Program-made: the position numbers and the translations under genes | Notes under the pieces: model-generated | Databases searched by the model: none | Seen by the model: only the letters and a program-made list of their open reading frames with translations | What the model was told of the DNA's origin: nothing | Assembly: GCA_963716985.1 (NCBI GenBank) | Contig: OY970323.1 | Coordinates: forward strand, 544,001 to 608,000 | Origin: an uncultured bacterium | GTDB taxonomy: Bacteria > Chlamydiota > Chlamydiia > Chlamydiales > SM23-39 | Length of the DNA stretch: 64,000 nt | Reading direction: 5' to 3' | Shown: positions 57,642 through 62,508 of the stretch, one piece after another | Numbering within the stretch: the stretch's first letter is position 1 | Layout of the letters: each line of letters begins with the position of its first letter

Positions 57642-58224
57642 GAAATGCGCTTTACTTCTTTTGCCTTTGATCGCTTGAAAATTTTTTTCAAAGATTGCTC
57701 ATCGACGCGCTAACGAAGCTATCGAGCATGCTTCTAGCGTGAGTTTATTTTAAAACTTTCAAAAATTGAACCTAACGATCTTGTGATGAATTGGATGGAG
57801 CAAAAACTAATGGTATACACCAACACTTTCTATTTTGAGCGGCTTCAGGTGCACTTTTGACAAGTTTAAAGTCTTAAAAAGCTCTTGTTGTCGATTGATG
57901 CATTTTGTTTCCAATCTCAACCTCCAAAGGATGTAAGAGACTTGTTTTCAAAATTCCCCTGTTTGAATTTTTTCACCAGCAGCTTTTCCTATCGGTATTT
58001 ATGTTTACGGAAAAATTGCGGAAATTTTTTTTTTGAAAGGCTAGCTTTTTGGCAATATTATTGAATCCGTTTCGAATTCAGTGGCCATAGAATCTTTTTG
58101 ATCAGGGCCTTTATCTCGACATGAGATAATTGCGCGCAAAGAGGGTTGCTCCTTTAAAACGGAGTAGCTATAGCTCTCCAATGTAACCGCGACCCATTTA
58201 AGGGTCAAAAACAAGGAGCAACCC

Positions 58225-59262
58225 ATGAAGTATTTTGTAGGTTTAGACGTTTCTATGAAAAACACATCTATCTGCATTGTAGACACAGAGGGAAAAATTG
58301 TCTACGAAACAACCGCGAGTACCGACCCGCATATTTTGGCAGATACAATTGAGAAAACGGGTTTCAAAAGTGAACTCGTAGGTTTCGAAAGCGGCTCTCT
58401 CAGTCATTACTTATTGCAAGGATTTCGAGAACGAGCTTTGAGTGCAGTTTGCATGGATGCAAGAAAAATGAGTGCCATTCTTTCTGTTCGTGTAAACAAG
58501 ACTGATAAGAATGATGCAAGGGGAATCGCCGATGCGCTCAGAACAGGAACGTTTTCTCGAGTACATGAAAAGCCACAGGAAGCTATCGATAGAGGCGCTA
58601 TTCTTTCTATGAGGCGATGTTTGGTGAGCCAACGTACTGATATCAAAAATCATATCCGAGGAATTTTGAAAACATACGGTATCCGTCTTGGTTCTGTTGG
58701 TCCTGCAAAATTCACAGAAACAGTAAAGCAACGCATTCAGCAGATAGATCCTTTGGTACAAAAGATAATGACAGGGTCGCTTGAAATTTTCGATCTACTC
58801 ACAAAACAGCTTTCTCGAATAGACCAAGAACTCTTGCAATTGGCCCGTGCAGATAACGAAGTGAAGCTCCTGATGACAGCTCATGGCGTAGGGCCAATTA
58901 TAGCACTGACTTATAAAGCTGAAATTCATGACGCCCATCGATTTTCCAATTCTCGTGCTGTCGGCGCATATCTTGGGATGACTCCGACACAATATTCTTC
59001 TGGAGAAACAAGTAAGCAAGGAAGAATCTCGAGATGCGGTTCCAGCGAGCTTCGATCACTGCTAACCGAAGCTGGGCTTGTGGTTCTTACGAGAAGCAAA
59101 AAATGGAGCAAGCTCAAGGCATGGGGGCTTAAAATCATGAGAAAAAAAGGTATTAAAAAAGCATCCTTGGCTGTTGGGCGAAAATTAGCAGTTATCATGC
59201 ATCGAATGTTGATAGAGAAAAAAGAATTTATATGGGGAGAACCGCCCAGTAAAGCAGCGTAA
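58225..59262 (+). CDS. IS110-family DEDD recombinase/transposase
   Basis: GLDVS, GFESG, KTDKNDA (DEDD); C-terminal YSSG serine motif; AGGAG RBS. Confidence 0.96.
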   Translation: MKYFVGLDVSMKNTSICIVDTEGKIVYETTASTDPHILADTIEKTGFKSELVGFESGSLSHYLLQGFRERALSAVCMDARKMSAILSVRVNKTDKNDARGIADALRTGTFSRVHEKPQEAIDRGAILSMRRCLVSQRTDIKNHIRGILKTYGIRLGSVGPAKFTETVKQRIQQIDPLVQKIMTGSLEIFDLLTKQLSRIDQELLQLARADNEVKLLMTAHGVGPIIALTYKAEIHDAHRFSNSRAVGAYLGMTPTQYSSGETSKQGRISRCGSSELRSLLTEAGLVVLTRSKKWSKLKAWGLKIMRKKGIKKASLAVGRKLAVIMHRMLIEKKEFIWGEPPSKAA

Positions 59263-59703
59263 ACTGTTCTTCACTTGAGCAATATTGGTGGATCGCATTG
59301 GAGCGGTCGAGATAGAGAGTAAAAATCATGAGTCAATATACAGGAACACCGAAGAAGTGGGCAAATACGTTGCAAAGTTGGCACATAGATGCCGTTCTCG
59401 ACATTGTATTGTCCATTTCATTCGGATTTCATGGTGGGGCGAGGAGAGAAAATGTACTCCTCAAAAAAAGACCCCGGAGAGAACGGTGGATTCTTCCTGT
59501 TGTTTGGACAAAAATGAAAACTTTTTATCCCGGCGTCTGTGCTCGTTTTTTATCCGGTCCCCAAGGCTTCGCTCACAAGTGAGGAACCGGAAAAAAAACT
59601 CCGCTAGCCGCCTTGAAGGGAAAGAACATTAAATAAGACCTTGAAAGTGTGTGATTTAAGCCTGCTTTTGAGCAAAGGATTATAAAATGACATAAGAGCA
59701 CTC
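59263..59703 (+). ncRNA. Putative bridge/seekRNA region (exact ends unknown)
   Basis: Stem-loop 59354-59419 whose internal loop carries GTTGCAAAGT and TCTCGAC, matching the two halves of the target site. Confidence 0.75.
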
Positions 59704-59844
59704 TTGCGCGCAATTAGAGAACTTTGTACATTTTTCGATCTGATAGCCCAAAGTCATTTGCTTCAATCTGTAAAATAAAAAGTTGATAGAGAGCGCCTCT
59801 TCGCGCATACTATTTGGTTCACTAAAACAAAATGGTAGGCTCTC

Positions 59845-61404
59845 ATGGACTCTCTATCGTCAAACATTTTAGCAGTACTCATCCCTTTTTCAGTACTTTT
59901 TTCAAATCCTTCTTGGAAAAAAGCTCTGACCTTATTACTTGGCACGCTTTTATGCACTGGCAAGAGAACCGTGTGCGCGGCTCTGCGCGCAATGGGTCTT
60001 GAGCATCAGGCGGGTTTTTCAAAGTACCATCACCTTTTAAACCGGGCGGAATGGTCGTCACTCAAGGCAGCGAAAATCCTATTCTTTATGTTGCTTATCT
60101 TTGTCTCCGATCAGCATCCTTTGGTTCTGCTCATTGACGAGACATTGGAGCGCAGGCGTGGCAAGAAGATAAAAGCAAAGGGCTATTATCGAGATGCGGT
60201 TCGATCGTCACAGTCTCGAGTGGTCAAAGCCATGGGTTTGAAGTGGCAGGTTATGGCGCTCTCTGTGAAATTGCCGTTTATGTCGAGAGCACTTGCATTG
60301 CCTTTTTTGAGTGCACTGGAGCCTTCTAAAAAATGTGATGAAGCGAAGAAACGTCGGCACAAAACCTCATTAAAATGGGCGAGTCAGATGGTCTTACAGG
60401 TGCGTCGATGGGTAGGTAAGGCGCGATCACTAATTCTTGTTGGCGATGGAGGATATGCTGCGGGACAGTTGGCTCTGAACTGTATCTGTTCTGGGGTGAC
60501 TCTTGTTTCGCGACTGAAAATGAATGCAGCCCTGTTCGATTTCCCGGCCAAAAAACGTCCCGGTCAAAGGGGACGTACAGCACAGAAGGGCGTCAAATTG
60601 CAAAATTTTAAACAGATGCTATCTCTGAAGGGATTGCCCTGGAAAGAAATGGAAGTAGTCGGTTACGGCGGAGAGAAACGGGTAGCTCGCGTGCTGTCTA
60701 ACACATGTATGTGGGGAGCCGATGGAGTGACTCCTATTCCCATCCGATGGACTTTGGTGGTGGATCCTACAGGAAAACTTGATCCTCTACCTCTTATGAG
60801 CACAGATCCACTCATGACGGCAGAACGTATGATAGAATTATTTATCGATCGCTGGGGACTTGAGGTCACATTCGAGGAAACACGTGAACATCTTGGCGTA
60901 GAGACCCAGCGGCAATGGTCGGATCGAGCAATAGCCCGATCGACTCCCATACTGATGGGGCTATATAGTTGTGTATGCCTAATGGCAAATCGATTGGGAC
61001 AGGTAAAGTTGCTGAAAGTAGAGGCAACTGCTTGGCACCAAAAAGAACAAGTCACATTTTCCGATATGTTGAGGGCTGTGCGCATGGTAATATGGAGGGA
61101 TAATTTAATTTCCGGGAAGACTAAAATCACCCCTTCCGTGGAAAATATTACTCCGGAAATGGTGGATTGGATGGATGATCCTAAAAACGGCAGTTGAACC
61201 GCTCCGCATGACCTGAAAATTGTAAATTTCTCTCTCAGAAATAAATTCTATCTTGAACTTTCACGCCCACCCAATAGGTGAGTGGATAAATTTGAGCAAT
61301 AACATTGATTTTTAGAGGAGAATCGCGAAAGTTTTGATTGTGCGGAGCGGTTCAACTGCCGTTTTTAGGATGATATAGTAAGGCGAGTGCTTCAGGCGGC
61401 CTGA
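59845..61404 (+). pseudogene. IS701-like DDE transposase with C-terminus truncated by a MITE (ORF 59845-61197)
   Basis: LIDETLERRRG, LVGDGGY, RWGLEVTFEETR. Removing the MITE restores ...DWMDDIVRRVLQAA* ending at 61404. Confidence 0.85.
61180..61369. mobile_element. 190-bp MITE
   Basis: Perfect 29-bp TIR CCTAAAAACGGCAGTTGAACCGCTCCGCA; 5-bp TSD ATGAT; no coding capacity. Confidence 0.9.
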
Positions 61405-61536
61405 GCTAAGCCGCTAAAAGTTGCAAAGTCGAGTTTATAATTTAATTTAAAAATGGAGGTATTTTATGCTTCAAATTCCTGGATATAGAGATCCTCTACT
61501 AGTGCTCTGTCATAGTTAAAATTTAGGATTATAAGT

Positions 61537-62508
61537 TTGGCAACGGTCGGCATAAACTCAAGTCAATTTATCCTAAAATTAAAGGGTGACAGAGCACTAG
61601 CCTATCAATCGCAATCTGTGGAAACGTTTCCTGAGAGAATTCATAGATATGCTATGATAACTAGGGCTATAGCAGGAGGAGCAGGAGCAGTAGCAGGAAT
61701 AGAAGCAGGAGTAGTAGTAGCAGTAGCAGGAATAGAAGCAGGAGTAGTAGTAGCAGTAGCAGGAATAGGAGCAGGAGTAGTAGTAGCAGTAGCAGGAGGA
61801 GTAATAGGAGCAGAAGTAGGAGTAGTAGCAGGAGCAGTAGCGGGAGGAGTAATAGGAGCAGTAGCAGGAATAGGAGCAGGAGTAGAAGTAGTAGGAGTAG
61901 TAGTAACAGGAGTAGTAGGAGCAGGAGTAGTAGCAGCAGTAGCAGGAGGAGTAATAGGAGCAGAAGTAGGAGTAGGAGTAGTAGTAGGAGTAGGAGTAGG
62001 AGCAGCAGCAGCAGTAGCAGGAGTAGGAGTAGCAAGAGCAGTAGCAGGAGGAGCAGTAGGAGCAGTAAGAGCGCCGAATGAAAAAAGAAAACAACAAGCT
62101 TTTTGCCGGGCTATTCTTTCGAACCATTTTCAAGCTTTATCCAATGCACAAAAAGCAGAAGATAAAGAAAACTTTTCTGTTATGATGGCAGAGGCCTTGG
62201 AGCGTATATCTCAAATCACGGTGCAGCAGCTTATTCTCTGTGAAACAGAGCCTACAGAAAGAAACATGCCACCGGCTCTTTATTCTATTATTTCCGAAGG
62301 GAATCGCTTAAGAGATATTCGCGAACATTTTCGAGGGCTTTCTGAAGGTCAAAAAAGGCAGTTGGATTTGCTTTCCGAAGAAGAGCCTCGAGATTCAGTC
62401 CTTTCAAGTCTAAGAAGAGATGGAAGATCTTTGGCAGGAAGTATTTTGGTAAGCAGAAGAATGAATCTTCTTTTTCAAGAATTTGCAGAAGCTGCGGCAG
62501 CGCTTTGA
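61537..62508 (+). CDS. Gly/Ala/Val-repeat membrane protein, paralog of 34159-35220; 5' end possibly frameshifted
   Basis: ~134-codon hydrophobic low-complexity tract; GGAGG plus ATG at 61466 lies in another frame. Confidence 0.6.
   Translation: MATVGINSSQFILKLKGDRALAYQSQSVETFPERIHRYAMITRAIAGGAGAVAGIEAGVVVAVAGIEAGVVVAVAGIGAGVVVAVAGGVIGAEVGVVAGAVAGGVIGAVAGIGAGVEVVGVVVTGVVGAGVVAAVAGGVIGAEVGVGVVVGVGVGAAAAVAGVGVARAVAGGAVGAVRAPNEKRKQQAFCRAILSNHFQALSNAQKAEDKENFSVMMAEALERISQITVQQLILCETEPTERNMPPALYSIISEGNRLRDIREHFRGLSEGQKRQLDLLSEEEPRDSVLSSLRRDGRSLAGSILVSRRMNLLFQEFAEAAAAL
61669..62070 (+). repeat. GNA-triplet low-complexity repeat (GCA/GGA/GTA/ATA/GAA)
   Basis: Almost every codon ends in A; higher-order 33-bp unit AGIEAGVVVAV occurs three times. 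Confidence 0.9.

Follow-up and report, generated by a model that had tools for sequence, protein, structure and literature searches.

A probable IS1111-type bridge/seekRNA element in the terminal repeat of an IS701-family insertion sequence of a chlamydia-like bacterium: a comparative sequence analysis

The window, i.e., the whole stretch of 64,000 nucleotides that was analysed, contains an insertion sequence (IS) of the IS701 family, hereafter the host IS, into which a second mobile element coding for an IS110-family recombinase is inserted. About 14 other full copies of the host IS occur in the genome, and CTCGAC (58115-58120) corresponds to the first 6 bp of its left terminal repeat in the window. 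The second element lies within this left terminal repeat, at TCTCG-AC-TTTGTA. Depending on the end considered, the host IS starts with CTCGACTTTGTACATTTTT, reading ...CTCG/ACTTTGT... in the 15 uninterrupted left ends of the other genomic copies, or terminates with ...AAAAGTTGCAAAGTCGAG, which is identical in 14 of the 14 right ends read. The empty site reads tCTCG-AC-TTTGTA and the occupied site TCTCGAC/ATGAGA... at its left junction and ...GAGA/ACTTTGTA at its right one; because this comparison of empty and occupied host left repeats places both junctions, the boundaries of the inserted element are those listed in Table 1, with the AC core present at both junctions. A whole-genome search identified a single intact copy of the element, which is full length only at this position. 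On the minus strand, the right terminal repeat of the host IS reads CTCGAC-TTTGCAAC and fits the guide described below perfectly, as regards both its core and its right half.

Two other features were noticed in the vicinity. A miniature element of 190 bp with inverted ends of about 30 bp (61180-61369) is inserted close to the 3' terminus of the gene for the host IS transposase; the open frame of this gene now stops inside the insertion, and some 13 further copies of this miniature element, most of them with 89-100% identity, are distributed in the genome. Just past the host IS, an open frame of 323 amino acids (61537-62508) contains in its middle part a long low-complexity G/A/V run made of GAGVVVAVAG-like repeats.

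Table 1. Position of the element, of the host IS and of the predicted RNA features in the window.
Feature	Position	Strand	Remark
IS1111-type (IS110-family) element	58121-59722	+	1602 bp including one copy of the AC core; junctions from empty-site comparison
Host IS (IS701 family)	58115-61433		Ends defined from its genomic copies
Host IS target duplication TTTAT, 5 bp	left 58110-58114, right 61434-61438		Read in the sequence
Left target half + core, TCTCG-AC	58114-58120	+	Same letters as 3' guide 59396-59402
Core AC + occupied right target half TTTGTA	59721-59728	+	Host IS left repeat resumes here
Host IS right terminal repeat, ...GTTGCAAAGTCGAG	61420-61433	-	Unoccupied
Host IS transposase, IS701 family, 450 aa	59845-61197	+	Pfam DDE_5; NCBIfam NF049999, 297 bits
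Left subterminal inverted repeat TAATTGCGCGCAA	58127-58139		Partner 59704-59716; kept in relatives
Recombinase gene, 345 aa, intact	58225-59262	+	Directly upstream of the guide-RNA region
Putative whole bridge/seek RNA, ~160 nt	59340-59500	+	Basal stem, target arm, donor module
Basal stem	59340-46 / 59494-59500	+	With closing stem CCGAA/UUCGG, carries the target arm
Target-binding arm	59349-59425	+	Closing stem CCGAA/UUCGG, outer stem, internal loop, inner hairpin 59379-59394
Target-binding loop, 66-nt stem-loop	59354-59419	+	One half of the two-loop guide RNA
Outer stem	GAAGTGGGCAAATAC 59354-59368 with GTATTGTCCATTTC 59406-59419	+	
Inner hairpin GGCA/TGCC	59380-83 / 59390-93	+	
Internal loop strands	GTTGCAAAGT 59369-59378; TCTCGAC 59396-59402	+	
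5' target guide UUGCAAAGU	59370-59378	+	Guided positions established in relatives
3' target guide UCUCGAC	59396-59402	+	Top strand of left target half + core
Donor-binding module (second loop)	59426-59484	+	Guides match the element's own ends
5' donor guide AUUUCAU + 3-nt linker GGU	59426-59435	+	Linker opposite the 2-nt core
Donor-module stem GGGGC/G-CCCC, hairpin GAGGAG/CUCCUC	59436-59475	+	Stem 99.7% paired, compensatory changes
3' donor guide AGAGAAC, after GG (59476-84)	59478-59484	+	
-10-like hexamer GATAAT	58125-58130	+	17 nt from TTGCGC (59704-59709) only if the ends are joined

The recombinase comprises the Pfam domains DEDD_Tnp_IS110 (PF01548, E = 3e-18) and Transposase_20 (PF02371, E = 5e-23) and reaches 252 bits, for a cut-off of 140, against the NCBIfam model NF033542 ('IS110 family RNA-guided transposase'). 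Its matches with the solved structures of ISCro4 and IS621 are weak and limited to the C-terminal domain (E = 5.8e-7 for IS621). The recombinase displays the motif G251-M-T-P254-TQYS-S259-G260, in which G251, P254 (at least 90%), S259 and G260 are conserved among 16 aligned homologues, and its length falls inside the range of the IS1111 group, described as having recombinases of 330-350 aa with a G-L-x-P-x4-S/T-G motif, an N-terminal DEDD/RuvC-like domain and a C-terminal PF02371 domain (PMC11187229). At least 7003 homologues, among 8000 scored, were found at E <= 1e-3, full-length ones reaching 83% identity. The best 120 share 60-83% identity with the recombinase, with the exception of a 302-aa entry at 94% (P0021), which is taken to be a decayed gene copy of the same genome, and, where the sources of the homologues carry names, these are names of chlamydial MAGs. 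The locus had been proposed in a first-pass annotation as a new candidate programmable recombinase; the IS110-family recombinase is intact indeed, but, rather than a new kind of enzyme, it is very probably one more member of the IS1111 group. The genome also harbours three copies of a different and longer IS110-family recombinase (G000:C1:414640-415857, 790985-792202 and 1525826-1527043), with open frames of 485-491 aa scoring above the NF033542 cut-off, together with fragments at 413589, 852899 and 856639.

The non-coding DNA of the element is unequally distributed, with 460 nt downstream of the recombinase gene (59263-59722) versus 104 nt upstream (58121-58224). The subterminal inverted repeats are perfect, all 13 of 13 positions agreeing with the reverse complement of the partner, and the terminal extensions which lie outside them consist of 6 nt on the left (ATGAGA) and 4 nt on the right (GAGA), giving 12 nt together with the 2-nt core.

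The 66-nt stem-loop recognized in the downstream non-coding stretch has a minimum free energy of -22.9 kcal/mol (z = -3.65), and none of 200 shuffled sequences was as stable. The outer stem and the inner hairpin enclosing an internal loop, on which the first-pass annotation was built, read in the sequence as they had been described, and the 66 nt fold in this manner. Each strand of this internal loop contains the AC core. The 3' strand had been equated with the left target half, and the two stretches are identical. The 5' strand had been matched to the host IS right end, to which its reverse complement is equal, and to the occupied left end over 8 nt with one wobble, which corresponds to a single G·T position. 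More precisely, UGCAAAGU, the 3' eight bases of the 5' guide (59371-78), forms base pairs with AC-TTTGCA on the top strand. The reverse complement of 59370-78 is ACTTTGCAA, whereas the occupied left repeat reads AC-TTTGTAC, so that G59372 faces a C in the host right repeat and a T, as a G·T wobble, in the occupied left repeat. Such matches between guides and flanks are far above chance at this locus. However, the 10/10 match previously claimed for the first guide holds for the letters and not for the guided length, which covers AC and about 6 nt. In the family, positions 3-7 of the right half match the flank in 28-34 of 38 and position 8 in 21 of 38. Positions 9 and 10 do so in 7/38 and 9/38, respectively, as expected by chance, and they were consequently rejected as guide bases; position 10 (G59369) is nearly invariant in relatives and behaves as a scaffold base. 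Since these two positions match the flanks at chance level, the guided site amounts to about 5 + 2 + 6 bp, i.e., about 13 bp.

Another observation concerns the dinucleotide AU at 59403-59404, which follows the left target guide and is the same as the dinucleotide (AT) that opens the left end. In one relative, represented by the twin loci L106 and L025, both bases changed together, and L037 shows a joint change at one position, while L103 misfits. The dinucleotide may represent a handshake-like extension as in IS621, these events being too few to claim it.

Besides the target-binding loop, correctly recognized in the first-pass annotation, a donor-binding module which had been missed lies just downstream. 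Its 5' guide AUUUCAU is complementary, apart from one G·U, to ATGAGAT (58121-27) at the left end, the core being not fully paired by this guide. Its 3' guide AGAGAAC agrees at 7/7 positions with the stretch 59716-59722 that closes the element and comprises the right end and the core. A donor-loop outer stem UUCAU/GUGGA suggested by the folding of the single sequence was dropped: relatives do not maintain this pairing, and preference is given to a junction which the basal stem and the target arm close.

The ends of the whole RNA, at 59340 and 59500, are taken from the conserved structure and should be read as predicted ends. A scan of the region 57900-61600 against Rfam at E <= 1 yielded no match to any family, including any bridge or seek RNA family; a microRNA match inside the gene (22.9 bits for a cut-off of 100, E = 0.48) was dismissed as a chance hit. 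A scan for promoters and terminators returned 5 promoter-like sites for 2.8 expected, none of them on the plus strand ahead of the RNA, and it revealed neither a sigma-70-like promoter on the plus strand between the gene and the RNA nor a terminator after the RNA. The -10-like hexamer of the left end and TTGCGC of the right end come to stand 17 nt apart when the two ends are joined, and, when the ends of relatives are set side by side, the right end of many of them reads TTGACA or TTGACT. By analogy with the joined ends of these families, which form a promoter with -35 and -10 hexamers (PMC11187229), TTGCGC-17 nt-GATAAT may act as a junction promoter.

A total of 158 loci of relatives, 78 from genomes and 80 from metagenomes, was available for comparison. 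The RNA region corresponds in most relatives to the conserved part of the 460-nt non-coding stretch, as detected by blastn. In a plain MAFFT alignment of 58 distinct sequences, the scaffold is conserved and the loop strands are hypervariable, and RNAalifold predicts 23 pairs, 17 of which show compensatory change. When the complete structure of 42 pairs is laid on this plain alignment, 83.1% of the cells are paired versus at most 54.1% when the pairing partners are slid; on the model-fitted alignment of 62 distinct rows, the corresponding values are 89.5% versus at most 49.5%, and 37/42 pairs exhibit compensatory changes on both sides. The outer stem is 93.5% paired and the inner hairpin 99% on the plain alignment, and pairing of 88-99% is obtained for these helices on the model-fitted one. 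Because the model-fitted alignment leans towards the model and biases the covariation counts in this direction, the figures from the plain alignment are the more conservative; the kinship among the sequences likewise inflates the shuffle tests. The covariance model, built on the plain alignment with its 42 pairs, gave 107 matches when the window was added to the 158 loci; 105 of them fall on the strand of the recombinase, just downstream of its gene, and the remaining 2 correspond to a second, inverted copy on one contig.

The conservation pattern also bears on the coding capacity of the region. Two open frames overlap it, one of 84 aa at 59328-59582 and one of 115 aa at 59285-59632, and the region could in principle encode a small protein. 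This reading has been rejected and has a practically negligible likelihood: hairpin loops and linkers differ among relatives by indels of 1, 2 and 4 nt, variation is concentrated in the loop strands and not at third codon positions, and the conservation follows the helices.

The location of the RNA region within the 3' untranslated part of the recombinase transcript would similarly agree with a conserved stretch that serves as DNA, e.g., as a binding site for the recombinase, or as a plain structure of the mRNA 3' end such as a terminator or a stabiliser, its likeness to the target being a by-product resulting, for example, from a captured target. This is highly improbable. The compensatory changes preserve helices of RNA, including G-U pairs, and the two target halves are carried by opposite strands of the internal loop, in opposite sense, and split exactly at the core, whereas a captured copy would be contiguous and in a single sense. 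In addition, the guides change along with the flanks in 72 distinct pairs while the scaffold remains constant. In the guide-RNA reading favoured here, the guides have been confronted with their DNA partners in relatives, using element boundaries set from the subterminal repeats alone, independently of the guides.

In a first set of 45 distinct guide pairs, the right half matched its own flank at 4.8/7 positions versus 2.2 in cross comparisons, and the left half at 4.1/5 versus 1.6. In the larger set of 72 distinct guide pairs, the right half reached 5.15/6 own versus 1.93 cross (n = 46) and the left half 4.13/5 versus 1.43 (n = 54), values attained in 0 of 10,000 permutations in both cases. 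Among the loci with both boundaries, at least 9 of the 11 non-core positions are matched in 30/38 and at least 10 in 19/38; fewer than 9 are matched in 7/38. The donor guides follow the same rule, as the 5' donor guide matches nucleotides 3-7 of its own left end at 4.39/5 positions versus 3.10 cross (n = 46 distinct pairs; 0/10,000 permutations), and 3 of the 4 distinct combinations show a 3' donor guide identical to the right end, the fourth one (L058) probably resulting from a misplaced boundary. Among these three are the donor variants AAGGAAC and AAAGAAC, changed in both the guide and the right end of the relatives concerned. Throughout the clade, the AC core does not vary. A telling example is L100, with a recombinase 81% identical, which resides in the same repeat sequence; the repeat belongs there to one end of a short element, about 150 bp long, both repeats of which are of the "left" type; its guide variant ...ACTTTGTA replaces ...ACTTTGCA and fits its own site. 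Of the 64 mismatches between guides and targets among relatives, 15 are wobble-compatible versus 6 reverse transitions, an enrichment which is suggestive only. Many relatives (loci L028, L036, L052, L112, L143 and others) share a common target, A(T/A)TAG-AC-(C/T/A)TCTT(G/T), with left flanks that are unrelated and right flanks that are alike for about 50 nt. This pattern would be expected from insertion into the end of another mobile element and, as far as such flanks can tell, the hunting of ends may be common in the clade.

The compared sequences directly show the anatomy of the element, the covariation of the RNA structure and, for each of the four guides, covariation with its partner in the DNA. 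On this comparative evidence, the element very probably represents a genuine IS1111-type bridge/seekRNA system. The naturally programmed guide RNA proposed in the first-pass annotation was supported accordingly, with stems that covary, loop strands that both covary with the flanks and an adjoining intact gene of the IS110 family; two of the points by which it was to be judged, folding with covariation across homologues and covariation of guides with targets, turned out in its favour.

A plausible course of events can be drawn by analogy with the known systems. The recombinase would be directed by the RNA of about 160 nt encoded just downstream of its gene, which would be transcribed and bound by the enzyme. 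The target guides would jointly specify a site of about 13 bp which, around the AC core, corresponds to the outermost part of the terminal repeats of the IS701-family IS, and the second module would hold the element's own ends in a like manner. As in IS621 and ISEc11, the element would be excised as a circle, the joined ends of which would form a promoter, and a tetramer of the RNA-loaded recombinase would then align the circle junction with the target and swap strands at the AC core.

The state of the element in this genome leads to a more reserved view of its mobility. Free sites are abundant, comprising 15 sites CTCGACTTTGCA and 15 sites CTCGACTTTGTA, i.e., about 30 in the genome; the T that completes the 13-mer precedes 8/15 of the former and 10/15 of the latter, and the perfect 13-mers number 8. 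Since a single copy is found despite some 30 free sites, the element may be inactive or barely active. One may even consider that the bridge-type RNA and the recombinase gene no longer move, and that the present copy is the stranded remnant of an old invasion. The contrast between one intact copy and 30 free sites with the 12-nt repeat motif is in line with such a fossil, as are the scan devoid of any promoter-like site before the RNA in the integrated state and three decayed pieces found elsewhere. The latter consist of a fragment of the recombinase gene with 95% identity (G000:C1:1985097-1985989), a solo left end of 61 nt still joined to the TCTCGAC flank (G000:C1:1181470-1181537, minus strand), both of which are remnants of earlier insertions, and an orphan piece of RNA. 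Against this, the recombinase frame is full length with all the family-invariant residues, and the two ends, both inverted repeats, the RNA stems and all four guides have remained intact and agree with the flanks as they now stand; moreover, a low copy number is common for such elements and their expression is expected mainly from the circle junction, as described in PMC11187229. A fossil is considered somewhat improbable.

The orphan RNA copy (G000:C1:1717898-1718302) deserves a mention of its own. It is 98% identical to the window copy, includes only the last ~75 nt of the recombinase gene and is devoid of the right end. All four guides are identical to those of the window copy. One C in the donor stem is replaced by U, the pair being retained as G·U. 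This copy, which lacks a recombinase, could serve as a source of guides in trans. A second repeated element of the genome ends in AATCTCGACTTTGCGATCATGTCGC, the first 12 nt of which fit the guide-specified 13-mer, and occurs in 9 copies, including one in the window at about 22536 (minus strand); 0 of the 9 copies are occupied. This element may offer a further class of targets.

At least 72 different target guide pairs have been found on one constant scaffold and donor module, several of them directed at the outermost bases of other mobile elements. It is tempting to regard the clade as a natural retargeting series of end-hunters, in which G59372 would let one RNA address both non-identical ends of the host IS and the orphan RNA would operate in trans, a scenario put forward as a rather improbable speculation.

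The mechanism is already in print, as are the 3' position of the RNA within IS1111 elements and the insertion of some members into the terminal repeats of other mobile elements; the bridge/seek RNAs of the IS1111 group were demonstrated or predicted in 2024 (PMC11187229, PMC11208160). Among the listed titles and abstracts from the literature on IS110 and insertion sequences in Chlamydiae, no paper was found on such an RNA. The picture of how these systems work is left unchanged by the present element, which adds a well-resolved and intact bridge-type system from a little-studied lineage, the chlamydia-like bacteria, with all four guides readable, and another case of an RNA-guided element parasitising the ends of other insertion sequences. 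Its main value resides in the clean natural series of target guides carried by one scaffold, which provides comparative data on the guide length, the tolerance to mismatches and wobbles and the constraints on the scaffold. Orthogonal pairs of recombinase and RNA might possibly be obtained from it.

With respect to the choice of target, IS4321/IS5075 are reportedly IS1111-type elements that insert specifically into the terminal repeat of another mobile element, in which they ride and which they disable. The present element differs from them by its host, an IS701-family IS and its miniature derivative, and by the target sequence. The IS1111 elements associated with seekRNAs, e.g., ISEc11, ISPa11, ISKpn4 and ISPst6, constitute the closest term of comparison in structural respects (Siddiquee et al. 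2024, PMC11187229). As in these elements, the recombinase combines the DEDD domain, PF02371 and a G-x-x-P-x4-S-G motif. The longer non-coding region lies downstream of the recombinase gene, as is typical of the IS1111 type, and the 13-bp subterminal repeats agree with inverted repeats which are usually of 11-13 bp and perfect or nearly so (PMC11187229). The order of the segments is also the same, the seekRNA of the IS1111 group having its top-strand match 5' of its bottom-strand match with an overlap at the insertion point (PMC11187229, PMC11208160), and there is no target duplication beyond the shared core, while the joined ends would carry -35 and -10 hexamers (PMC11187229). The terminal extensions depart from the published description, itself given with exceptions, of 7 bp on the left and 3 on the right, occasionally 6 + 3: 12 nt separate the subterminal repeats at the joined ends here versus 10 or 9 (PMC11187229), a spacing treated as a subgroup variation. 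Unlike ISEc11, ISPa11, ISKpn4 and ISPst6, the present element belongs to a chlamydial, environmental lineage and would target the terminal repeat of an IS701-family IS.

The likeness to IS621 (Durrant et al. 2024, PMC11208160; Hiraizumi et al. 2024, PMC11208158) extends to the same two recombinase domains and to the partition of the RNA into a target module and a donor module, in each of which one guide reads one strand and a second guide the other, with a common core of 2 nt where they meet. A discontinuous pairing of the guide for the right side of the donor also occurs in both: 9 nt of RNA are used for 7 nt of DNA in IS621 (PMC11208160), and a 3-nt linker stands opposite the 2-nt core here. 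In contrast, the RNA is located 3' of the gene here and 5' in IS621, the order of the guides within the loop is reversed (PMC11208160), and the core is AC instead of CT. Finally, as judged from the predicted fold set against the published text on IS621, the donor guides of the present RNA would flank a stem opening into a multi-branch junction instead of residing in a separate closed internal loop.
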